From the UHGV virus genome UHGV-1371085: a stretch of DNA of 48,079 nucleotides. One strand, written 5' to 3'. Source of the stretch: a virus. A model generated the notes under the pieces. The model ran no database searches and was not told the DNA's origin. It worked only from the letters and a program-made list of their open reading frames with translations. Positions 6,819-43,883 of this stretch are shown piece by piece. The translations under genes were made by a program, and so were the position numbers. Position 1 is the first letter of the stretch, and each line of letters begins with the position of its first letter.

Positions 6819-6847
6819 ACTATACGATGGCGCTCAATCTACGTCAA
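6819..6847 (-). promoter_or_regulatory. leftward promoter: -35 TTGACG (with TAGATTGAG extension), 17-bp spacer, -10 TATAGT
   Basis: The minus strand reads cataTTGACGTAGATTgagcgccatcgTATAGT. It lies upstream of a small ORF (6794..6678) that has an AGAGGTGA SD. Confidence 0.55.
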
Positions 6848-6889
6848 TATGATGGTGAAAATAAAATTTAGTTAGTAATCACTTGCAGT

Positions 6890-7504: not shown

Positions 7505-8991
7505 TGGCAATAAAGACCATTTACGACCTTACAGCAGACATCAAAAAAGATGCCTGGTACGACATCACCAAGCCGCCAGGGCTTGCTGGTGAGATAGCTG
7601 AAGACATCGCCGCTGGTGAAGTGCGAGAACAGCCAAGGTTGCGCGCTGTGGCAGCACTGCATGAGTTGGTCATTGCCAGCAAAGGTAAAATTAAAACCCC
7701 GAGCGGCATGAAAGGAAACTTGCTGACCATCTGTATTGCTGATTCCGCCGGTGGTAAAGACCGTTCTCAAAGTCATTTCAAGATGATCGCCCGCGATATC
7801 GACAAAGGTCAGCACGTTTTTGGCCGCATAGCATCATCAAAAGATATCGGGCGCACACTGATAAACCATGAAGGCGTGGCAACATTTATTATTGATGAAT
7901 GCCATGGTCTTTTTGGCGTGATGTCACAAAAGAATGGCGCCACCTATATGGCAGAGCTTGGCTCTGAAATTCTCTCAATCTATTCAGACCGCCTGAAAAA
8001 ATTCTCTGACCTTGATGCCATTAATGCGAAGGAGTTGCTGGAGAAGGAGTTAAAAAAACTGCGAGCAGAAGTTAAGGATAAAGGCATTGTTGAGACTGAG
8101 TATCGTCGCCGTGAAATGCAACTTGAAAGAGAGATTTTGTGGCCCATCCAGAACGGGATAGAAGACCCTATATTTTCAATGATGTGCTTCTCAACGCCTG
8201 AAAAGCTGGCAAGCATCATCTGCTCTGAAAACATTGGTACCGGCCTTATTGGTCGTGCGATATTCATCAAAGGAAAAGATGGCCGAGCAAGGAAAGCAAA
8301 AAGATTCGGTCACAAGACGCCACCATCTCTTATCGAGAAGATGAAACAGATAGAGAAATCAGCGCCAACCGTGGCGAGATACGAAGATACAATGGTTGAG
8401 CAACTTGCTGAATCTCTTGATGATCGTTTTGAGGAGTTGCGGAATGATGTTTCGCTAGGAGCTGTAATATCACGTTCATTTGAGCAGGTAGAGAAAGTGG
8501 CAACAGCTCTTTCTGCTGGAAACAAAGGGGTCATTACAGAGGCCATGCTGATGTGGGCTTTTTGCTTTGTGTGCGAAAGCCTTACTGACGTAATGAGCAT
8601 GCTTAAGGTGAATGAGAGCCAGGAGGAACTTGGCACCATGGCGCGATGGAACGAGATTAAAAACCGCATTGAAAACGTGCTATCTGGTAGAACACGCGAT
8701 GATTCAATGCCTCAGTCAAGCATTATTCAGCGAGTAGTTAAAACCAAGTCGCTAAAAGGACTGGCAGAAGCTATTGCTCGTACCAATGGAGAGGATTTTA
8801 ATTTCGGCGCAAAAACACTTATCACGCCAGTAATGCAGGCATTAATGGAGTCAAGGGCTATTGATGCTGTCGGTTGCGGTTACTGGATTAACGACGCGAG
8901 CAAGTTTGAGTCGACAAAAATGAGCATCAAATTCTCTCAGATTGTTGAGGGTATCGGCATGAATATGGCGGCACAGAGAGGTTGGAGATGA
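7501..8991 (+). CDS. large unknown protein (496 aa) with degenerate SF2-helicase-like motif I and a DECH box
   Basis: LTICIADSAGGKDRS resembles a degraded Walker A. FIIDECHGLFG is a DExH-type motif II, and the 644-aa helicase in this genome has DECHQ. A central coiled-coil segment is present. No family could be assigned. Confidence 0.65.
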   Translation: MMAIKTIYDLTADIKKDAWYDITKPPGLAGEIAEDIAAGEVREQPRLRAVAALHELVIASKGKIKTPSGMKGNLLTICIADSAGGKDRSQSHFKMIARDIDKGQHVFGRIASSKDIGRTLINHEGVATFIIDECHGLFGVMSQKNGATYMAELGSEILSIYSDRLKKFSDLDAINAKELLEKELKKLRAEVKDKGIVETEYRRREMQLEREILWPIQNGIEDPIFSMMCFSTPEKLASIICSENIGTGLIGRAIFIKGKDGRARKAKRFGHKTPPSLIEKMKQIEKSAPTVARYEDTMVEQLAESLDDRFEELRNDVSLGAVISRSFEQVEKVATALSAGNKGVITEAMLMWAFCFVCESLTDVMSMLKVNESQEELGTMARWNEIKNRIENVLSGRTRDDSMPQSSIIQRVVKTKSLKGLAEAIARTNGEDFNFGAKTLITPVMQALMESRAIDAVGCGYWINDASKFESTKMSIKFSQIVEGIGMNMAAQRGWR

Positions 8992-13020: not shown

Positions 13021-13065
13021 CGTGGTTTGATGTAGATTGATTTAACAATAAAAAAGAGGTGATGG

Positions 13066-25766: not shown

Positions 25767-25796
25767 TTGACAGGGGGCGCAAAACTGACGTAGATT
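25767..25796 (+). promoter_or_regulatory. promoter: -35 TTGACA, 18-bp spacer, -10 TAGATT (overlapping a CTGACGTAGATTGA motif)
   Basis: ccaTTGACAgggggcgcaaaacTGACGTAGATTgaaa. A related TGACGTAATTATAC element lies at 25751-25764. Confidence 0.4.
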
Positions 25797-25826
25797 GAAA
25801 GCATAAGGTGATTGAGGTTTTGACAT

Positions 25827-25961
25827 ATGAACGAGACTGATGCTGATTTGAGATTTTACATCGACCTTTACATCGATCAGGGTTACACCTATGAGGAGGC
25901 CCGCGTAAAGGCGATTTTGTTGCTGGCTAAGATTGGCGTAGTGGTGGAGGATAAGAGATGA
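25827..25961 (+). CDS. hypothetical small protein (44 aa)
   Basis: MNETDADLRFYIDLYIDQGYTYEEARVKAILLLAKIG. First ORF after the promoter. Confidence 0.3.
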   Translation: MNETDADLRFYIDLYIDQGYTYEEARVKAILLLAKIGVVVEDKR

Positions 25962-26326
25962 GCACTGATTACAGCAAGATGAGTGATTTTGAGATTAATT
26001 TACGTGTTGCAGAGATTGTGGTCGACTACGACTGCATGTCAAGACTCCCATATACTGATATGGCTGTGCATTGGGGTGACGGCGCGAATTGGCATGCTTT
26101 TAACCCATGTAAAAACCCGGCAGATGCATGGCCGATTATCGTTGCTAATAAGATAAGCATCGTGTCACTCGATAACAAATGGATTGCAGCACCGATTGAT
26201 ACAGTAATTGATGGCATCACCGGAGATTCTGATGTTTGTTTTTATGCAAGCTCTGATGCCGTCTTTGATGCAAATCCACTGCGCGCCGCCATGATTGTCT
26301 TCCTCATGATGCGGGGTAGCAAGTGA
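25958..26326 (+). CDS. hypothetical phage protein (122 aa), possibly DUF2591-like
   Basis: ORF overlapping its neighbours by 4 nt. The family call rests on weak recollection of the pattern. Confidence 0.4.
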   Translation: MSTDYSKMSDFEINLRVAEIVVDYDCMSRLPYTDMAVHWGDGANWHAFNPCKNPADAWPIIVANKISIVSLDNKWIAAPIDTVIDGITGDSDVCFYASSDAVFDANPLRAAMIVFLMMRGSK

Positions 26327-27981: not shown

Positions 27982-28026
27982 GTTTAGAATCCTCTGTGTT
28001 TAGCTAAACAATCGCATTATATCATG

Positions 28027-28141: not shown

Positions 28142-29023
28142 ATGATGCGCAAGCTAACTACCGAAGAGTTTATTGCCAAAGCTAAAGCGGTTCATGGCGA
28201 TAGGTATGATTACTCAGTAGCCATATATGTAAGTGCTCATACCAAAATATCTTTAATATGCAAATCTCATGGTAAATTTCTCCAGACCCCAAACAGTCAC
28301 CTAAGCGGATGTGGCTGCCCAGCGTGCGCCAAAAAGCAAAGGCCAATATCAAATCTAATGGGTGTTAATGAGTTCGTTATGGAATCCAGAAAAATACATG
28401 GTGATAGATATGATTATTCAGAAGTTAAATATAAGAAATCAATAGATAAAGTAAAGATAAGGTGCATGCTACACGGACATTTTTATCAGTCACCAAACAA
28501 CCACTTGGCCGGTCATGGATGCCCAGAGTGTTCAAGGAACAAAAAAAGAAACTCACTAGAGTTCATAAAAAAGGCGCATGAAGTTCACGGGGCCGACAAA
28601 TACATTTACAGTCTTGTCGACTATAAAAACGCAAACACAAAAGTTTTGATAATTTGCAAAAATCATGGGGTCTTTGAGCAGACACCAATCAAGCATACCC
28701 TTGGTGGAGGATGTCCTGGTTGCGCAAAGTATGGATTCGATGAGTCAAAGGTTGGCTTTGTCTACTTCCTGATTAGCGAGTTTGGGATAAAGGTTGGGAT
28801 ATCAAACACCCCATCCCAGCGGCTACAAAAACTCAAATCAGCAACCCCGTTCGATTTTCATCTTATCGCAAAAGTAAAAACTACCGGCGCCGAGGCCATG
28901 CGCAAGGAAAAATATTATCATCACAAATATGAATCCGCCTCTCTTACTGGATTTGACGGCGCTACCGAGTGGTTGCGATTCTGTCCAGAATTGATGAATG
29001 AGATCATGAATGAGAAGAATTAA
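28142..29023 (+). CDS. GIY-YIG superfamily (T5orf172-type) homing-endonuclease-like protein with three N-terminal zinc-ribbon repeats
   Basis: The unit HGDRYDYS...CK.HG.F.Q.PN.HL.G.GCP.C occurs three times. The C-terminal GFVYFLISEFGIKVGISNTPSQRLQKL...EWL matches the T5orf172/GIY-YIG pattern. The gene is AT-rich and on the opposite strand, inside the tail operon. Confidence 0.65.
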   Translation: MMRKLTTEEFIAKAKAVHGDRYDYSVAIYVSAHTKISLICKSHGKFLQTPNSHLSGCGCPACAKKQRPISNLMGVNEFVMESRKIHGDRYDYSEVKYKKSIDKVKIRCMLHGHFYQSPNNHLAGHGCPECSRNKKRNSLEFIKKAHEVHGADKYIYSLVDYKNANTKVLIICKNHGVFEQTPIKHTLGGGCPGCAKYGFDESKVGFVYFLISEFGIKVGISNTPSQRLQKLKSATPFDFHLIAKVKTTGAEAMRKEKYYHHKYESASLTGFDGATEWLRFCPELMNEIMNEKN

Positions 29024-30277: not shown

Positions 30278-30663
30278 CTGCACTTACTCCCGGTGACAAC
30301 CCGAAACCACGGCTTTGCTGCCCCATCAGGCTCTTCCACAAGGTCGCCTGTGCAGTCTGCCGTGTCGAGTAGTTTCATCTGATTGTAAAGGGCCATCCAC
30401 GGCTTGCTGCCATAGCCAAATGACTGCGACGCGCCAGATGGCGCCCGGTGGCTGGTTATGTATCTCCCGGCTGTATTTGAGGCGATCAGGATAGAGGCCC
30501 ATAGCAGAATTACATCCTGCCTGCATGTGTCTTCAGGGTAATTAAGTTCAAGGCACTCTGTGATGCTCGCCACCAGGCACAGGATGCCCGTTGCATCTGC
30601 CGTGGTGATAGTTACGCCTCTTGACGCCATGGCGGCGACAAGTTCACTTGCTGTCGGTGCTGC
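30274..30663 (-). CDS. head-tail connector / adaptor protein (gp6-like, putative; from MAAPTASEL)
   Basis: About 130 aa. First gene of the neck cluster. The assignment is by position and size. Confidence 0.4.
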   Translation of the reverse strand, partial: AAPTASELVAAMASRGVTITTADATGILCLVASITECLELNYPEDTCRQDVILLWASILIASNTAGRYITSHRAPSGASQSFGYGSKPWMALYNQMKLLDTADCTGDLVEEPDGAAKPWFRVVTGSKCR

Positions 30664-30931
30664 CATTCTTTTTGCTCTCCCGAATCTTCCACCACATCTC
30701 AAAAAGGTTTTTTGCCACCAGTGACAGCGCACCAAGGATAGAGGCCACCGCCGCCCACTCGGTAATCGAATGGGGGATCATTGATGCAATGTATGATTGC
30801 GCGACCGGCGTCTGCTCTGCCACCTTCAGGCCAAGACCCGTGCCGATGGATGTATAACCGGCTTTGTCGATTACCTGGCCGACAGTGCCACTAATTATCT
30901 GGTTTGCGGCGTGCTGAAGCGCGTCTCTCAT
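30644..30931 (-). CDS. small membrane protein (95 aa, one or two TM helices)
   Basis: Hydrophobic segment WAAVASILGALSLVAKNLF. It lies upstream of the connector gene. Confidence 0.4.
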   Translation of the reverse strand: MRDALQHAANQIISGTVGQVIDKAGYTSIGTGLGLKVAEQTPVAQSYIASMIPHSITEWAAVASILGALSLVAKNLFEMWWKIRESKKNGSTDSK

Positions 30932-31092
30932 TAATTATTCTCCGAATGATGAACTTCCAGCATCTGTACACCTGAACCAGCGAAAACGCTATGACGATAA
31001 CGCCGATTGCTATATCCAATTTCGCCGCCTTACGTTTTTCAGGACGGAACAGCGCGGGGTGAGTGTTGTTGGTTTAATTTTATCATAAAGTG

Positions 31093-31121
31093 TTGACGTA
31101 GATTGAGGGTGTCGCTATAGT
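31093..31121 (+). promoter_or_regulatory. promoter: -35 TTGACG (TTGACGTAGATTGAGGG), 17-bp spacer, -10 TATAGT
   Basis: Near-identical to the leftward promoter at 6819-6847. A GATGGCGTAGAAAC element follows at 31122-31135. Confidence 0.55.
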
Positions 31122-31155
31122 GATGGCGTAGAAACAACAATAAATGTTAGAGGTG

Positions 31156-31479
31156 ATGAGAATGAAATTGATTACAAACCGTGATGAATTTGTGCGTTAT
31201 CTGAAAATTGCATGCGAATCAGGGGCGCTGACAAATGTTGATGATAAATCGCTCCGCGATATTCGCATTCAGTCTGCTGATGGAAGCAAGTTTAAAATCA
31301 CATGGTACACCAATTCATGCACGCTGATTGCTCCGGGGTTTAGTTTGTGGTTCGACAATGTGCGCATTGAAGAAACTCATCCGTGCTTTCAAGTTGCGCT
31401 GGTGCTTTATCACAATGGCTTCGCAGTGGCGCACATTGGTCATGTCTATGACCATCTTGTTGATGGTTATAAAATTTAA
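31156..31479 (+). CDS. hypothetical protein (about 107 aa)
   Basis: First gene of the island, with SD AGAGGTGA. Confidence 0.4.
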   Translation: MRMKLITNRDEFVRYLKIACESGALTNVDDKSLRDIRIQSADGSKFKITWYTNSCTLIAPGFSLWFDNVRIEETHPCFQVALVLYHNGFAVAHIGHVYDHLVDGYKI

Positions 31480-31871
31480 GAGAGGTGATGAAAATGAATG
31501 AGTTCAAAGGTACGCCGGGGCGCTGGATTAAGCGCGGAGATGGCATTGTTGCTCCTGGCGATATTGAGGTGGCTGTAGTGGTTAACTTTCAGGATGATGA
31601 TGCGATGAATGCAGACGCTAATCTCATCGCCGCTGCGCCTTAGTTGCTGCAGGCGTTGCAAATGATAATGAACGGTGATTTTTATATGCCGAAAGAATCA
31701 GCAGATGCCGCCCGCACAGCCATCTCCAAAGCACTCGGAGAATCCCAATGATTCGCCACGAAATCCGAAAAGAAGACCTGAAAGCATGGCGCAACTTCAA
31801 AATCAAACTTGTATTAATCGTTATCGGATTCGCCATTGCCAGCGCAATCTGTTTATCAAAGTGAGGAAAAG

Positions 31872-32687
31872 ATGACATCTCTCGGAAAAATTTACTCAGA
31901 CAAAGAAACTCGCGGCGGAATCGTGGTCAACAAAGGTTATCAGGTTCCTGTCGACCAGCTTTACCTTGAGCCGGGTTACAACATCCGCGAAGCCGATGAG
32001 CAGCACGTTGAATACTTCGCGCAGTGCTGGGAATCAGGCCAGCCAATCCCTGCGTTAACTGTTATTCCTGATGCTGACGGAAAGCGCATCAAGATTCTTG
32101 ACGGTCAGCATCGTTATCTTGGCGCACTGCGTGCTATTGAGCGCGGCGTGCCAATTGCGCGCATTGAGTGCAAAGACTTCACCGGCGATGAAGCGGACAA
32201 AATCGCCTTCATGGTGTCATCCAGTCAGGGTAAGCAACTCGACCCGCTTGAGCGTGCAAAGGCTTATGTGCGCCTGAAAGGTTTTGGGTGGACGAATGAA
32301 GAAATCGCCAAGAAGGTCGGTCGCTCAGTTTCTGATGTGCAGATGCACCTGTCACTTGGTGATGTGCCTGATGCCATCAAGCAGCGCATCAACGCAGGCC
32401 AAATCAGCTATGCCAATGCCGTTGCAGTGGCGCGTGAGCATGGCGATGATGCCGTTAACGTTATTGATGCTGCCGTTGAGGAAGCGAAAGCGCAGGGCAA
32501 GGATAAGGTGACGGCGAAAACGCTCAAGGCCAAAAAAGTCAAGCCGATTGACCGCCTGATTCAGCTTCTGAAAGAAGCAGATCACATGGTTGTCGCTGAG
32601 GGTCATGTGGCGCAGGAGACAGAAGAGTTTTTGCGCCTTCCTTCCGCTGAGTTGAGTGAAGTGCTGGCGATTCTGGAGAAGCTGTGA
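31872..32687 (+). CDS. ParB-like protein (ParB/Srx N-terminal domain plus HTH)
   Basis: KILDGQHRYLGALRAIERG is a ParBc-type DGxHR arginine motif. NEEIAKKVGRSVSDVQMHLSL is an HTH. The start MTSLGKIYS has SD GTGAGGAAAAG. Confidence 0.65.
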   Translation: MTSLGKIYSDKETRGGIVVNKGYQVPVDQLYLEPGYNIREADEQHVEYFAQCWESGQPIPALTVIPDADGKRIKILDGQHRYLGALRAIERGVPIARIECKDFTGDEADKIAFMVSSSQGKQLDPLERAKAYVRLKGFGWTNEEIAKKVGRSVSDVQMHLSLGDVPDAIKQRINAGQISYANAVAVAREHGDDAVNVIDAAVEEAKAQGKDKVTAKTLKAKKVKPIDRLIQLLKEADHMVVAEGHVAQETEEFLRLPSAELSEVLAILEKL

Positions 32688-32944
32688 TGAAAGGGTTAAT
32701 CAATAGTGGTAATAGCGTGGATTGGTCTTCGATGAGCACTAAAGACATTATTGATCAAATGTCTAAAGCTGTTATTGAGGTTGCTGGAGCCATTGATAAG
32801 GGATTCGCATTCCTTTTAACAGAAAAGGCATACCATGAAGTGCGACGCTGCCGATACAGAAAGTGCAGGGTCAAAAAAGGTTGCGGAAAATTCCGTTATG
32901 TTGCAATAGGTGGGAGTAATATTTCATTTAGGCGGCAAAGATGA
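32684..32944 (+). CDS. hypothetical basic Cys-containing protein (86 aa)
   Basis: ORF overlapping the ParB stop. The C-terminus is RCRYRKCRVKKGCGKFRYV. Confidence 0.35.
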   Translation: MMKGLINSGNSVDWSSMSTKDIIDQMSKAVIEVAGAIDKGFAFLLTEKAYHEVRRCRYRKCRVKKGCGKFRYVAIGGSNISFRRQR

Positions 32945-33114
32945 ACCCCGAGCAATTCATAGAGAAAAACCTGCGCGAAAAACTGCCAGGTATCGACAAC
33001 GCGGCCATAGAGGCCGCAATTACCCACTACAGGCGCAACCAGAGTGAAAAGAAGGGCAAGATTTTCGATGAATGCCTGAGGGTTGCAAAACAACACATGG
33101 TGAAGGTGAAGTGA
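32941..33114 (+). CDS. hypothetical small protein (57 aa)
   Basis: MNPEQFIEKNLREKLPGIDNAAIEAAITHYRRNQ... Its stop overlaps the ATG of the clamp-fragment gene (TGATG). Confidence 0.3.
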   Translation: MNPEQFIEKNLREKLPGIDNAAIEAAITHYRRNQSEKKGKIFDECLRVAKQHMVKVK

Positions 33115-33650
33115 TGAAATTAAAAATCAGCAAGTTGCTCCTTGAAGGTGCTTTGATATTTCAGGCCAAACAGGATGCGCGTTACTACCTTAATGGCATT
33201 TGCTTTATGCCTGATGGTCGCGTTGCCGCTACTGACGGACACCGCGCTATGATTGCCAGCAAGCATGAAAATAAATTGAAAGATAACGTTATCGTTTCTG
33301 TCAGCAAGTCGCCAACTAAGCGTTATGCGTATGCGCTACTGGACACCAAAACAGGTATTGTTACTTACCATGACGAGCATAAAATCATGGTAGGCGCAGG
33401 TATGTGCTCTGAGATTAATGGCCGATTCCCTGACATTGATCGTGTTATCCCAAAGCAGACGGCGGCAACAGAGCAAATCGGCTTCAACGCCAAATATCTG
33501 GCAGATGTTGAGAAGTTGGCAAAGCTGTTTAACCCGAAATATGAAAGCGTGCGCTTTGAACTGAATGGCAATACCAGCGCCGCCGTCGCAAACATCAGTG
33601 CGCCAACTGGCGAGACTGCCAAAGTTATCGTTATGCCGATGAGGCTATAG
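33114..33650 (+). CDS. truncated DNA polymerase III beta sliding-clamp (DnaN) homolog: domain II plus the C-terminal half of domain III (178 aa)
   Basis: [30 protein letters not shown] aligns with E. coli DnaN [46 protein letters not shown] aligns with [31 protein letters not shown] aligns with EIGFNVSYVLDVLNAL. The C-terminus KVIVMPMRL matches the DnaN end AYVVMPMRL. Domain I and the first half of domain III are absent. Confidence 0.7.
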   Translation: [178 protein letters not shown]

Positions 33651-33653
33651 AAA

Positions 33654-33932
33654 ATGCCTGATATGAAAAGATGCCTTTGCTGTGGGGTGGTTAAAGGAAG
33701 TTATGAAGAGCACAATAAGGAATATACCGAACTTGTGGATTTGGTTTTGCAATGTGGTGATGAAAGGCAGTTGCTGAAGCTTTCTGACATCATGAGAAAC
33801 AAAATCACAACTTGCGTGACGACGTCAATTGGCAAGGATAAGCTGGCTTATGAGGAAAAGGATCTTTGGCATGTTCAGGTTATGGTTGATGCTTTAAGTT
33901 TGCTCCGTGATAAGTTACAGGAGCGCCAGTAA
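33654..33932 (+). CDS. hypothetical Cys-containing protein (92 aa)
   Basis: CLCCGVV...QCGDE is a possible zinc-binding motif. Last gene of the island. Confidence 0.4.
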   Translation: MPDMKRCLCCGVVKGSYEEHNKEYTELVDLVLQCGDERQLLKLSDIMRNKITTCVTTSIGKDKLAYEEKDLWHVQVMVDALSLLRDKLQERQ

Positions 33933-33934
33933 AC

Positions 33935-33962
33935 AAAGCCCCTTTCGGGGCTTTTCTTTTAT
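33935..33962. terminator. bidirectional rho-independent terminator
   Basis: aaagcccc tttc ggggcttt followed by TCTTTT. Confidence 0.7.
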
Positions 33963-34792
33963 CAAGGAAGATAAGCATCATCCTCAATCCACGAAACGTA
34001 AGCATTGATATTTTGCGCCGCCGTGTCCAGGGATGTGATGCGTAACAGATAGGTAGTATTAGGCGCCATGATGATCTGCTCACCGAGTTTTGCCTGCGAA
34101 TTACCCTGCCCCTGATTCGATGCGTTCCCTTCACTATACGTCGCAGCCACCGTCAGTTGCCCAATACTTGTAATCGTAGAGCCAGTCAGAAGCTGCGCAG
34201 TTGCAGTATGCGGCGCGATGTCATTTGGGTTATTAATCTCCGCAGCGGTGCCGCCAGTGGCTACGGCTCCACGGTAGATTGACGCCACGACACCCTTACC
34301 TGTGTAGCCAATGATGCGCTGATTGAACACGACCTGTTTTGACCCGGTAATAAAGATGCTGTCAAGGTTAGCCCCGCCAGCGACATCAGTCACGCGACGA
34401 GATGCGGTGAATAGCTTTCCCTGCTTATTGGCAAGCTCCGAGTAGGACTGCGCGACAACCTGGCTTGATGGCACTGATGTATCGGCTCGCCATACCAGGA
34501 CTTTCAGGGAAGCAACGCCAGCAGGGAGCTGGGACTTAATCACTTTCAGTCGCAGCGCCACGCCATAATAATTATTATTGTTAACGTCAATCCAGAAGTC
34601 ACCAGATGCAAACGGCGACACCATTACGGAAACAGATCCGCTTGTTAATGGTGCGTGACCGCCGGAAGAGTTTAATGGCACAATCTGCACCTGCAATGCA
34701 GTCCAGTCTGCTGACATGGTTTCGCTAAGCAAAACCTCTCCGTCAGCCGGAGTTGTGTTTATTTCGTACCTGACAGCCATGATAACCCCCAA
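33962..34792 (-). CDS. structural protein of unknown role (276 aa; capsid accessory or decoration candidate)
   Basis: Lies in the late operon downstream of the MCP gene. It is Gly/Ser/Thr/Ala-rich and beta-rich in appearance. Confidence 0.45.
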   Translation of the reverse strand: MGVIMAVRYEINTTPADGEVLLSETMSADWTALQVQIVPLNSSGGHAPLTSGSVSVMVSPFASGDFWIDVNNNNYYGVALRLKVIKSQLPAGVASLKVLVWRADTSVPSSQVVAQSYSELANKQGKLFTASRRVTDVAGGANLDSIFITGSKQVVFNQRIIGYTGKGVVASIYRGAVATGGTAAEINNPNDIAPHTATAQLLTGSTITSIGQLTVAATYSEGNASNQGQGNSQAKLGEQIIMAPNTTYLLRITSLDTAAQNINAYVSWIEDDAYLP

Positions 34793-35016: not shown

Positions 35017-35107
35017 GATAAATACCTCTATTTTGATGTTGATTAATTATAACACATGACATGTATATGTGCTAAGATGGCAAAACCAAATCAGCAAGGA
35101 TTACACT

Positions 35108-35905
35108 ATGACCACAAGAAAAGAACTAGCTATTAAAGCCAGAGAGCAGGGATTAAAGCAGTTTGTCTGCACTGAGTTCCCTTGCGCAAAGTGTGGGTGC
35201 ACTACTTTCTTTACTGCTGGCTGTGGGAAATGCAAGGATTGCTTGTATGAGTTCACCAGAGCTAAGCGCGCAACAAGCGAGGGGCAGGAAAAGGAGCGCA
35301 TTAGCCGGAAAAAATCATATGACAAATATTACTCTATGCCTGAAAACAGGAAAAAGAAATCAGAAAAAGATAAAGCCTACATAAGGCGCGTAAAGTCTGA
35401 CCCTTCAAGGCGTGAAGCGTTCCTGGAAAAGAAAAGGAAGATTTATCGTAAATGGTATTACTCAAAGAATGGTAATGCAAAGGCATTGCAAAACGTAAAA
35501 CAATGGATGATGGATAACCCGCACCATCTACTCCTTAGGAAGGCCCTGGAAAGAATGGATATCAAGATCGGCGCTATTCTTTCTGATTCAAGCATTGATG
35601 AAGTTCTTGGTTACTCAAAAGATGAATTTGTTAACCATATAGAGTCAACAATGGAGGCATGGATGAGCTTTGATGATAGAAGTTCATGGCATATTGACCA
35701 TATTCTTCCTGTGAACTGGTTTGTTAAGAATGGGCTTGTGTATCCAGAGCTAGTTAATTGCTTGCATAACCTTAAAGCTGAACCTGCCGAGTACAATTTC
35801 AAAAAGAATAGCCGATGGCTAAGGGATGATATTACAGAGTGGGAGTGGTGCTACATGCTTCAGTGGATGGTTTATGGCGAGATAAGGTATAAAGAAGGGG
35901 GCTAA
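35108..35905 (+). CDS. HNH endonuclease with an N-terminal Cys-rich zinc-finger region
   Basis: SSWHIDHILPVNWF...LHNLKAEPAEYNFKKN is the HNH motif. FVCTEFPCAKCGCTTFFTAGCGKCKDC is a zinc-finger region. The gene is on the opposite strand inside the head operon, with SD AAGGA. Confidence 0.65.
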   Translation: MTTRKELAIKAREQGLKQFVCTEFPCAKCGCTTFFTAGCGKCKDCLYEFTRAKRATSEGQEKERISRKKSYDKYYSMPENRKKKSEKDKAYIRRVKSDPSRREAFLEKKRKIYRKWYYSKNGNAKALQNVKQWMMDNPHHLLLRKALERMDIKIGAILSDSSIDEVLGYSKDEFVNHIESTMEAWMSFDDRSSWHIDHILPVNWFVKNGLVYPELVNCLHNLKAEPAEYNFKKNSRWLRDDITEWEWCYMLQWMVYGEIRYKEGG

Positions 35906-35920: not shown

Positions 35921-37009
35921 TTACAGTGCTGTTTGTGTACCGTATGCGTTAAATACCTTGGAGCGCCCCGCAAAATCCTTTTTCACCTGCAAACCCATAG
36001 CAGCCCAGGTCAGGAAGTTAAAGTTAGCGTGCGGCGTGGTGCGCGGCTCTGCATAGGTAGATACCGGCTGAGCGACGCGAGGGCGGATATACAGCGCATT
36101 CTTCACATAGCCGACGAAATGGTTTCCGGTCAGCTTGAAGTTGGTGCCGATAGACGCGATGCGGCCAACGTTTCCGGTTTTGCCGAATGCGAGGATGTAA
36201 TCCTCAATGGTGCCGCCTTTGAAGCCTGCCGCGTTGGAGTACGGACGGCTGAAGGAACGGCGCACGGACGGAGAAACCCACAGAGTAACCGGCTCGAACA
36301 CGTTCTGCGCATCCAGAACCGCCTGGAAATCCTGGTTGAAGAACTCAACGATTTCATCAGGGGTTGCAGTTTGCAGGTCGATGTTCAGCGCGCCAGTACC
36401 GGAGGCACTCAGGTTAAGCTGCACGGTGTTCGGGTGGTTGGTGATGCCGTAAGCAGCATAAACGCCGTTTACGTTCAGGCTTGCATCGCCGACCAGCAGA
36501 TAATCCGCCATGTCTGCGCGCAGGTTGAAGGTGGTGCTTTCCTGGTCATCAATCAGCGGGTCGAAACCTTCAGATTGCATACCCAGCAGCTCACGCCATT
36601 CACGGCCATAACCGGTTTTGAAGATCGGGATTACATCGCCGCTGTATGAGTAGCGGGTTTTATCCAGGTCTTCAGGCTCCTGCCCGGAGATGGTGCGCAC
36701 AACCTTACCAGCGTCGGAAGCCATGCGGCTAACTGCCACGGTCTTGCCGATGTTGATGTTGGTCGCCAGCGTCATCAGGTCGGCCATCATGTCCATGCCG
36801 GACTCGTTGCGGAATACACGGGTGGTCACGTCGTCCACTTCACGCCAGTAATCCTTCGTTACCAGCGCAGTGGCGTTTACGCCGTATTTTTTGGTCAGGT
36901 CGTGCTCACCATTAATGAAGACCTTGCGGTCAACTTTAAGGTGTTTCCACTGCTGCTCAACAATCTGCGAGTTGGCAATCAGACCTTTCGTAAAGATAAT
37001 CTTTTCCAT
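35921..37009 (-). CDS. major capsid protein
   Basis: 362 aa. It follows the scaffold and decoration genes, and its composition and size fit an HK97-fold siphovirus MCP. Confidence 0.8.
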   Translation of the reverse strand: MEKIIFTKGLIANSQIVEQQWKHLKVDRKVFINGEHDLTKKYGVNATALVTKDYWREVDDVTTRVFRNESGMDMMADLMTLATNINIGKTVAVSRMASDAGKVVRTISGQEPEDLDKTRYSYSGDVIPIFKTGYGREWRELLGMQSEGFDPLIDDQESTTFNLRADMADYLLVGDASLNVNGVYAAYGITNHPNTVQLNLSASGTGALNIDLQTATPDEIVEFFNQDFQAVLDAQNVFEPVTLWVSPSVRRSFSRPYSNAAGFKGGTIEDYILAFGKTGNVGRIASIGTNFKLTGNHFVGYVKNALYIRPRVAQPVSTYAEPRTTPHANFNFLTWAAMGLQVKKDFAGRSKVFNAYGTQTAL

Positions 37010-43812: not shown

Positions 43813-43853
43813 TTGTTACCTCCGGTGATGCAGATTATTTTATCATAATCCTA

Positions 43854-43883
43854 TTGACGTAGATTGAATCGTAAGCGATGATG
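43854..43883 (+). promoter_or_regulatory. promoter built on TTGACGTAGATTGAATC (-35) with a downstream GATGATGTAGTTAC element
   Basis: Lies 28 nt upstream of gene 43911. The -10 is weaker than in the sister promoters. A candidate leftward extended -10 (TGATAAAAT) for the lysis genes overlaps it on the minus strand. Confidence 0.4.

Follow-up and report, generated by a model that had tools for sequence, protein, structure and literature searches.

The locus described here raises the question whether a ParB-like protein and a protein derived from the bacterial sliding clamp, encoded in the same small phage cassette, form one dedicated system or are two separate factors. The stretch analysed (UHGV virus genome UHGV-1371085, 48,079 nucleotides, in the following called the window) represents a complete or nearly complete siphophage genome of ~48 kb, and the two genes belong to a short plus-strand cassette (31088 to 33962) lying among minus-strand head and neck genes. 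A preliminary description of this cassette had proposed that the two proteins constitute a DNA-targeting module, possibly acting on the host nucleoid or replisome or excluding competing phages. According to our analysis, the ParB-like protein and the clamp-derived protein, which we call the mini-clamp, are two independent accessory factors and not one system. The overall reading that we favour, and to which we assign a moderately high probability, is that of a real, dispensable and mosaic accessory cassette, transcribed by host RNA polymerase as a unit and vertically inherited in a Klebsiella/Salmonella/E. coli siphophage lineage, whose two recognisable proteins work independently.

Distribution of the ParB-like gene and the mini-clamp gene

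The window DNA is ~92% identical to the Klebsiella phages KP591P3, MK54, ZCKP8 and VLCpiS13b and to the Flyfo siphovirus Tbat1_6; the phage group was placed as Roufvirus, sister to Skatevirus, in the paper on the BASEL collection. The cassette is found between head and neck genes, with the same gene order, in Tbat1_6, RSU-F4K5, Bas78, seszw and KP591P3, and it occupies the same position in well over 100 Roufvirus/Skatevirus-type phage genomes. Searches at an identity of at least 60% gave 196 phage records with the ParB-like protein and 146 with the mini-clamp. The cassette is already widespread and ordinary for this lineage rather than new, and the combination of genes that had seemed unfamiliar is an arrangement inherited across one phage lineage in conserved synteny.

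The idea of a single DNA-targeting module draws on the fact that the two genes would be co-transcribed, ~430 nt apart, that they occur together in well over 100 genomes of the lineage, and that both folds act on DNA. This co-occurrence, however, is limited to one lineage with fixed synteny, where it follows from shared descent. When gene neighbourhoods were compared, as the preliminary description had recommended, the two genes did not co-occur outside the lineage in the genomes sampled: a ParB was called or annotated near the mini-clamp gene in none of nine such neighbourhoods, and the genome of phage ep3, which encodes a ParB homologue (51% identity), is devoid of a mini-clamp. In these nine neighbourhoods, the mini-clamp gene lies next to genes for a helicase and a DNA polymerase (PhiXhv-5), a helicase and a VRR-NUC protein (LIET2), Dam and Dcm (Skarpretter), Dam and a single-stranded DNA-binding protein (SSB; XM1) or Nmad5 (EP23); in Salmonella prophages, it comes first in a replication operon with PolA, adjoining a cI-like repressor, and it stands alone among small open reading frames (ORFs) or structural genes in P400, RS10pmA and K453. 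On the Salmonella enterica prophage contigs (L017-L019), a 175-aa mini-clamp (8001-8528) is the first gene after the cI-like repressor, followed in the operon by genes for a DUF2800/PDDEXK nuclease, an Enc34-type SSB, either SIR2 or Nmad5 at a variable position, and a DNA polymerase of family A.

Within the lineage, each of the two genes has been lost separately, and natural phages exist with only one of the two genes or with none: in KP591P3, exactly the mini-clamp gene is missing, VLCpiS13a has lost the ParB-like gene except for the last ~50 codons, and VLCpiS13d lacks everything from the ParB-like gene through the mini-clamp gene. The same picture emerges from a CRISPR-based genome-reduction study of the Skatevirus seszw, which yielded 69 sequenced mutants from designed edits of 100 bp or whole-gene deletions, and for which we inferred the presence or absence of genes from the deposited mutant genomes. 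At an identity of at least 99%, the ParB gene was present in 70 records of seszw and its mutants and the mini-clamp gene in 47, i.e. ~23 of the 69 mutants lack the latter. In the smallest mutant inspected, genes 16 and 17 (coding for the mini-clamp and the phrog_4439 protein) are gone and the ParB gene is retained; the phage remains viable, with ParB intact, when the clamp gene is deleted in the laboratory. The suggested defence against competing phages found no backing either, as the PADLOC defence models gave no match at E-values up to 0.01 for the seven products scanned (the halves of the split phrog_1273 gene described below were excluded). We consider a joint DNA-targeting module very improbable on these grounds.

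Features of the mini-clamp and the ParB-like protein

The clamp-derived product had been taken for a DnaN fragment, but its gene is not a broken one: the mini-clamp belongs, at full length, to a conserved family of proteins of ~170-210 aa. In HMMER and pairwise alignments, it matched DnaN residues ~135-248 (domain II, ~130-252 of E. coli beta) joined directly to residues ~311-366, and its C-terminus corresponds to the DnaN C-terminus VMPMRL. It has no counterpart of domain I or of DnaN residues ~253-310, which make up the first half of domain III and include I272 and L273. Beta in which these two residues are replaced (I272A/L273A) is monomeric (PMC11139829). The mini-clamp thus lacks both sides of the interface that closes the ring and cannot form a ring of the DnaN type; by its sequence, it is ring-less. 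A homotetramer in which four subunits of 1.5 domains rebuild the six-domain ring was ruled out by geometry, reasoning from the known fold, because the two-fold axis relating one half of a clamp domain to the other is radial, and rotation about the ring axis does not relate them. The fold of the mini-clamp is that of a sliding clamp, and its scores stay under the Pfam cut-off (19.6 bits for beta_2 and 20.7 bits for beta_3 against 27, no match to beta_1) and under that of TIGR00663 (45.6 against 137.65). A further label, RusA-like Holliday junction resolvase, was rejected, as RusA was not among the Pfam matches at E-values up to 1 and as fold and sequence alike point to a derivative of the beta clamp; carried by phrog_3007, this label is a mis-annotation that has spread to RefSeq (NC_071143, NC_071155 and others).

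An exhaustive search of 1.84 billion representative proteins delivered 170 mini-clamp clusters at 50% identity (E-value of at most 1e-10). Among the best 150 of these 170 clusters, nearly all are 165-220 aa long, match end to end and rank above canonical DnaN (366-378 aa). By tblastn, mini-clamp genes were found in 291 phage records from many host genera, including phages of Enterobacteria, Vibrio, Xanthomonas, Pseudomonas and others. Besides its length (178 aa compared to 366 aa), the mini-clamp of the window differs from DnaN in that a short loop takes the place of the second helix of domain II and in that it is basic and not acidic, with a pI of 9.4 compared to ~5 for full-length DnaN; the median pI of the family is 6.7.

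In order to assess the surface to which clamp partners bind, we used the 18 residues of subsites I and II listed for the clamp-binding-motif cleft in a recent review. Fifteen of them are identical in the mini-clamp and DnaN, the differences being L177A, V360I and V344T. Over 82 divergent family members, mean conservation was 0.81 at the cleft columns and 0.38 elsewhere, and of the 25 columns conserved best, 13 were cleft residues (p = 1.7e-9). These values indicate that the mini-clamp retains the predicted hydrophobic cleft for clamp-binding motifs. We found no functional study of a mini-clamp in the literature, and genome papers label the protein as the beta subunit of DNA polymerase III.

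The herpesvirus proteins UL42, UL44, PF-8 and BMRF1 are clamp-fold accessory subunits of polymerases that form no closed ring and need no loader. Unlike the mini-clamp, each of them comprises two complete domains and works with a viral polymerase of its own, and there is no detectable sequence relationship between them and the mini-clamp. Gp168 of phage Twort (PDB 7evp) and MuC of phage Mu (PMC12867686) resemble the mini-clamp with regard to the presumed point of intervention, i.e. the clamp and its motif cleft, but these proteins bind the host clamp, whereas the mini-clamp imitates the clamp surface and would compete for clamp partners.

KorB of plasmid RK2, ParB and Noc are CTP-dependent DNA-sliding clamps that bind palindromic sites via a ParB-type helix-turn-helix (HTH). 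The ParB-like protein of the cassette shares their domain order: it consists of a ParB/Srx N-domain with the motif DGQHRY at residues 77-82, an HTH at ~122-203 and a small C-terminal domain. The ParB/Srx fold with HTH, proposed earlier from the DGQHRY motif, was confirmed by Pfam (HTH_ParB 4e-11, 43.4 bits with a cut-off of 22.6; KorB 2.4e-6), by PHROGs (phrog_1033, 2.9e-87) and by comparison to PDB sequences, of which Spo0J was the best (1.4e-11). An AF2 model with a pLDDT of 85.5 gave KorB (8qa9), Noc (7nfu) and ParB (6t1f) as best Foldseek matches, with E-values of ~5e-9 and target TM-scores of 0.66-0.74. The assignment of the fold to KorB/ParB/Noc is solid. The protein is 100% identical in other isolates and ~81% identical across genera.

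The nucleotide pocket deviates from that of the canonical proteins. Instead of the Box II motif GERRxR, the aligned residues read DGQHRY, of which only the last arginine (R81) is kept; D77, G78, H80 and R81 are invariant or nearly so across the family. Box III, which coordinates Mg and the triphosphate and supports hydrolysis, reads SSSQGK instead of ENLQR(E), with only the glutamine kept. Judging from these alignments, the pocket is degenerate, with the key Box II arginine kept and Box III lost. The canonical ParB model TIGR00180 was missed as well (43.4 bits compared to a cut-off of 58.45). According to a survey from 2025, mobile elements carry many orphan proteins of the ParB fold in which Box III diverges and the NTP specificity varies; the survey also reports that nucleotide specificity is not predictable from sequence or AlphaFold3 models (PMC12704722).

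The ParA-binding motif (L/F/I)G(K/R)G(L/F/I) is missing, the N-terminus being MTSLGKIYSD, and no ParA partner is annotated in the cassette or in the complete Bas78 genome, nor is one listed in the annotated genomes of the relatives. An ordinary partition protein of a plasmid prophage, which the preliminary description had kept as the opposing case, was ruled out by these two observations. A further likeness to KorB is that the ParB-like protein is located on a mobile element and would more plausibly be a regulator than serve partition. It differs from KorB in that it has no ParA- or KorA-type partner and no operator was found for it, and in that it is encoded by a virulent phage.

Boundaries, scaffold and cargo of the cassette

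The self-contained character of the plus-strand island proved to be real: a promoter and a terminator enclose nine plus-strand ORFs which oppose the head and neck genes (Table 1). All credible ORFs between 31088 and 33962 are on the plus strand and the flanking genes are on the minus strand. The GC content of the cassette (42-54%) is only mildly lower than that of the flanks (50-57%).

The promoter had been described correctly, with TTGACG and TATAGT at a distance of 17 nt matching 10 of the 12 consensus positions in our promoter scan. The 4-kb region contains five promoter-like sites compared to 5.6 expected from shuffled sequences; since such sites are not enriched, the consensus match on its own is weak evidence. 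The promoter and ~40 nt of leader, however, are nearly invariant between Roufvirus-type (Klebsiella) and Skatevirus-type (Salmonella/E. coli) phages, whereas the coding DNA of the cassette is only ~77% identical, and ~30 nt of the leader are invariant in an alignment of five phages from two genera. In addition, the window contains five copies of the extended -35 element TGTTGACGTAGATTGA compared to 0.41 expected, a count that none of 100 shuffles reached, and all five are positioned in spacing upstream of a gene block. The invariance across genera together with the excess of TGTTGACGTAGATTGA argues for a real promoter at 31093. The five copies are located at 6834-6849 (-), 13025-13040 (+), 25783-25798 (+), 31091-31106 (+) and 43852-43867 (+). 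Three of these sites resemble complete promoters, with a TATAGT -10 element at 17 nt for 31091+ and 6849-, and an upstream element, TTTATCATAA, is common to the sites 31091+ and 43852+. The five sites, which are of the TTGACGTAGATTGA type, probably represent one temporal class of promoters or a shared operator. A second GACGTAGA-like copy (GGCGTAGA in the window) is found ~34 nt further downstream than the one in the -35 region and may be a regulatory site in the leader. The leader (31122-31161) had no match in Rfam.

At the other end, a terminator scan identified a hairpin composed of AAAGCCCCTTTCGGGGCTTT and a run of T between the convergent island and the block of head genes; its surroundings are conserved in relatives. 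Of the strong bidirectional terminator claimed before, the plus-strand terminator held up, whereas bidirectional function is plausible, the tail on the minus strand (GTTTACTGG) being weaker.

Pairwise BLAST against the relatives revealed conserved blocks that alternate with three replaceable segments. Slot 2, for example, holds a C5-cytosine methyltransferase gene in Bas78 and RSU-F4K5 and a 115-aa Cys-rich ORF in VLCpiS13a, and is empty in seszw; slot 3 holds a different 83-aa gene in relatives, or none. The insertion in slot 1 is flanked by a duplicated ribosome-binding and start sequence, GAGGTGATGA(A/G)AATGAA, which suggests that cargo is exchanged by recombination at short conserved junctions. 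The accessory nature attributed to the cassette was borne out, since it is dispensable and mosaic; its opposite transcription was confirmed as well.

Table 1 Features of the cassette and its flanks, with positions in the window.
Feature	Position	Strand	Remarks
Sigma-70-type promoter	31093..31121	+	TTGACG 31093-31098, 17-nt spacer, TATAGT 31116-31121
Leader/5' UTR with ribosome-binding site, CGTAGAAACAACAATAAATGTTAGAGGTG	31122..31161	+	exceeds coding DNA in conservation
Variable slot 1 cargo, 111 aa	31144..31479	+	105 aa if start is ATG 31162
phrog_1273-family gene, split by in-frame TAG 31641-31643	31485/31494-31751	+	phrog_1273, 3e-8
38-aa single-pass membrane peptide	31748..31864	+	directly upstream of ParB-like gene
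ParB-like protein, 271 aa	31872..32687	+	ParB/Srx N-domain, ParB-type HTH
Variable slot 2 cargo, 86/85 aa, basic, 3 Cys	32684..32944	+	pI 10.2; function unknown
57-aa phrog_4439 protein	32941..33114	+	phrog_4439, 3.3e-23; function unknown
Mini beta-clamp, 178 aa	33114..33650	+	DnaN domain II and second half of domain III
Variable slot 3 cargo, 92 aa, 5 Cys	33654..33932	+	from ORF list; function unknown
Intrinsic-terminator hairpin	33935..33954		8-bp stem, 5 G-C pairs, loop TTTC
Conserved block: promoter and leader	31064-31178		pairwise BLAST
Variable slot 1	31179-31718		contains 111-aa gene
Conserved block: 38-aa transmembrane ORF and ParB-like gene	31719-32690		pairwise BLAST
Variable slot 2	32691-32940		contains 86-aa gene
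Conserved block: phrog_4439 and mini-clamp genes	32941-33650		pairwise BLAST
Variable slot 3	33651-33927		contains 92-aa gene
Conserved block: terminator	from 33928		pairwise BLAST
Membrane-protein gene	30644-30931	-	flank; neck genes also on minus strand
276-aa gene	33962-34792	-	flank
Major head gene	35921-37009	-	flank

The set of ORFs listed in the preliminary description was found to be present, apart from a pair of supposedly separate 49-aa and 29-aa ORFs, which are in the same frame and make up a single phrog_1273 gene with a TAG in between. The joined translation (MNEFKGTPG...LIAAAPELLEAL...AISKALGESQ) aligns end to end with Tbat1_6 gp80, RSU-F4K5 ORF_50 and Bas78_0046, and at the position of the TAG the relatives encode Glu (...AAAPELLEAL...). 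No tRNA gene was found in the window, which excludes a phage-encoded suppressor of TAG 31641, and a search for RNA elements gave nothing to explain the in-frame stop. As far as the sequence tells, the split is due to a nonsense mutation, which would make the gene a pseudogene, to an error in sequencing, or to a codon that is read through.

With respect to the remaining small genes, the true start of the 111-aa gene is likely ATG 31162, which follows a GAGGTG ribosome-binding site. Its product only weakly matched phrog_21861 (function unknown) and had no match in Pfam, NCBIfam and PADLOC, and no DNA homologue of the gene was found among 50,697 phage records. The 38-aa membrane peptide is 92-95% identical in Tbat1_6 and RSU-F4K5, with its position conserved in the Klebsiella lineage; the RSU-F4K5 annotation calls the homologue a transmembrane protein. 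The start of the 86/85-aa gene overlaps the stop of the ParB-like gene, and homologues are Tbat1_6 gp76 (94%) and KP591P3 gp27. The 57-aa protein is conserved at 72-96% in every relative examined, and its gene is translationally coupled to the mini-clamp gene via a TGATG overlap; it was lost along with the mini-clamp gene in seszw 290S and is retained in KP591P3, where the mini-clamp is absent. The 92-aa product had no family match in scans of Pfam, PHROGs, NCBIfam and PADLOC, and a DNA homologue of its gene exists in just one other phage record, SCNJ1-C.

Outside the cassette, the minus-strand virion block is interrupted by two low-GC (~40%) plus-strand genes at 28142-29023 and 35069-35905. 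One codes for a T5orf172/MUG113-type endonuclease with a treble-clef zinc finger (phrog_681, 2e-74) and the other for an endonuclease VII-like protein (phrog_1035, 8e-17), and both are, from these matches, probably homing endonucleases. A small plus-strand insert in the tail region (25958-26326) is a NinX-family gene (Pfam PF10765, 3e-15), which lies downstream of a TTGACGTAGATTGA-type site at a distance of ~160 nt. In the fully annotated relative Bas78, genes for a helicase, a primase, an SSB and exonuclease VIII are present. A DNA polymerase gene is absent from the annotation of this close relative (the ORFs of the window themselves were not scanned for a polymerase); phages of the Roufvirus/Skatevirus type therefore presumably replicate via host Pol III.

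Proposed roles and rival explanations

According to the reading that we favour, host RNA polymerase would transcribe the cassette as one unit, probably in the early or middle phase, as the type of promoter implies. The promoter and leader, the genes for the ParB-like protein, the phrog_4439 protein and the mini-clamp, and the terminator would form a fixed scaffold, with three slots swapping cargo by recombination. The ParB-like protein, without a ParA partner, would be a sequence-specific regulator or organiser of phage DNA in the manner of KorB, a role proposed by analogy that we put forward tentatively and at somewhat less than even chances. The mini-clamp keeps the surface of the host beta clamp for QLxLF-type peptides, as present in Pol III alpha and delta, Hda, Pol II/IV/V and MutL. 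We give about even chances to its cleft being used to bind such motifs in host replication and repair proteins, as an adaptor or a decoy, by which the host replication machinery would be biased toward phage DNA. With clearly less confidence, we suggest that mini-clamps may constitute a previously unrecognised class of viral takeover or replication factors, i.e. ring-less and loader-independent copies of the cleft that capture host motif proteins (Pol III alpha or delta, Hda, translesion polymerases, MutL) and either bring them to phage DNA or keep them away from the host chromosome. That in this lineage alone the ParB-like protein, with a fold able to encircle DNA, might serve the mini-clamp as DNA tether, so that the pair would be a split sliding clamp without a loader, seems very improbable to us.

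Other roles of the mini-clamp and of the cassette were weighed against this proposal. The mini-clamp could be a DNA-bound tether that needs no loader, like UL42 or UL44, and serves a polymerase or a DNA-modifying enzyme. We regard this as possible but on the whole unlikely, since the median pI of the family is not particularly basic, no clamp-binding motif was found in the neighbouring polymerases, the window has no methyltransferase and Bas78 no annotated polymerase; moreover, genes for polymerases and methyltransferases are common in phage replication modules, so that their adjacency to the mini-clamp gene is weak evidence. Poisoning of the host clamp by dominant-negative co-assembly with DnaN monomers, shutting off host replication, has hardly any probability in our view: both sides of the DnaN dimer interface are missing from the mini-clamp (domain I and the I272/L273 half of domain III), the substitution of I272 and L273 already renders beta monomeric, and a phage that seems to depend on host Pol III would harm itself by blocking the clamp. 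Least of all do we believe that the island is decaying junk made up of gene fragments and chance ORFs without function. One of its genes does contain an in-frame stop, and viable phages lack the cassette in whole or in part. Against this stand the identity of the ParB-like protein among isolates and its similarity across genera, the conservation of mini-clamp length and cleft over ~170 clusters at 50% identity, the invariance of promoter and leader across genera, and the escape of the seszw ParB gene from Cas9 through in-frame deletions only. The evidence for purifying selection is already strong.

The ParB-like protein, for its part, might be an activator or targeting subunit of the DNA-modifying enzyme encoded in slot 2, left over in the window after loss of the enzyme. 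In Bas78 and RSU-F4K5, a PF00145 methyltransferase gene begins at the stop codon of the ParB-like gene, fusions of ParB-fold domains to methyltransferases are enriched in phages (PMC12704722), and, according to a 2026 study, one subclass of phage thymine dioxygenases acts on double-stranded DNA only in the presence of a cognate ParB-like protein (PMC13229309). The position directly upstream of a DNA-modifying enzyme in relatives and the divergent Box III are likenesses to such orphan phage ParBs. The dioxygenase-associated proteins, however, lack a DNA-binding domain (PMC13229309), whereas the ParB-like protein has a clear HTH, and no modifying enzyme is encoded in the cassette or elsewhere in the window, where homologues of nine tested phage DNA-modification proteins were all absent. 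A highly conserved ParB-like gene beside a slot without methyltransferase is seen in the window, in seszw, in Tbat1_6 and in KP591P3. A strict role as methyltransferase partner is ruled out for this phage, as there is no methyltransferase elsewhere in the window; as a general account of the ParB-like protein it appears rather unlikely, and we judge similarly its help for the C5-methyltransferase encoded immediately downstream in relatives, although it may act as an assistant there.

Several observations weigh against parts of the reading that we favour. The cleft is among the best conserved parts of DnaN in general, so its conservation in the mini-clamp may partly be due to the folding of the junction of domains II and III. 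No strict match to a QL[SDEN]LF-type motif, which is short and degenerate, was found in the ORFs of the window or in two phage PolA proteins encoded next to a mini-clamp. Genes for DNA modification (C5-methyltransferase, Dam, Dcm, Nmad5) lie within a few genes of the mini-clamp in six of ten lineages, i.e. the nine outside neighbourhoods plus Bas78/RSU-F4K5 (modification-linked loci L003, L002, L005, L006, L010, L012 and L018); this adjacency could reflect a different role, linked to post-replicative DNA modification, or it could be chance, given that such genes are common in replication modules.

With regard to the ParB-like protein, a search of the window for parS or operator sites, covering perfect and one-mismatch palindromes, repeated families and conservation in Bas78, returned no repeated palindrome and none conserved across genera, but only terminators, two palindromes within coding sequence and one site restricted to close relatives. 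The perfect 14-bp palindrome TGTTTAGCTAAACA at 27997-28010, just upstream of the Ig-domain major tail gene, has half-sites similar to the KorB operator and to the outer bases of parS. It is kept in three relatives of the Klebsiella lineage, including VLCpiS13a, which lacks the ParB-like protein, and not in Bas78; ~3 palindromes of this kind are expected by chance. Furthermore, the ParB gene was lost in none of the 69 genome-reduced seszw mutants. Two mutant ParB variants (P0279 and P0280; e.g. MZ375330) carry unplanned in-frame deletions of 15 aa compared to the wild type (L009:3501-4310), one removing LGDVPAEVKARISAG in the HTH domain and the other SGQPLPALTVIPDEK in the Box I region of the N-domain, and these deletions are probably Cas9-escape events which preserve the protein. 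The retention of ParB and the in-frame escapes suggest that it contributes to the fitness of seszw, even though natural relatives without ParB exist, and that it matters more than a purely accessory gene would.

For the phage lineage, which is well sampled, these results describe the cassette as a conserved hot spot of accessory genes and remove the false lead of a system composed of ParB and clamp. The ParB-like protein offers a tractable example, from a virulent phage, of orphan ParB-fold proteins with functions beyond partition. The part of the cassette most worth pursuing is the mini-clamp, whose family is uncharacterised and mislabelled, either as DNA polymerase III beta subunit or as RusA-like resolvase, and in which evolution has pared the clamp down to little beyond the surface that is bound by all clamp partners. 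If clamp-binding motifs are indeed bound by the mini-clamp, nature would have provided a minimal reagent for this hub, which is an antibiotic target, and the protein would represent a new viral way to redirect the host replisome.

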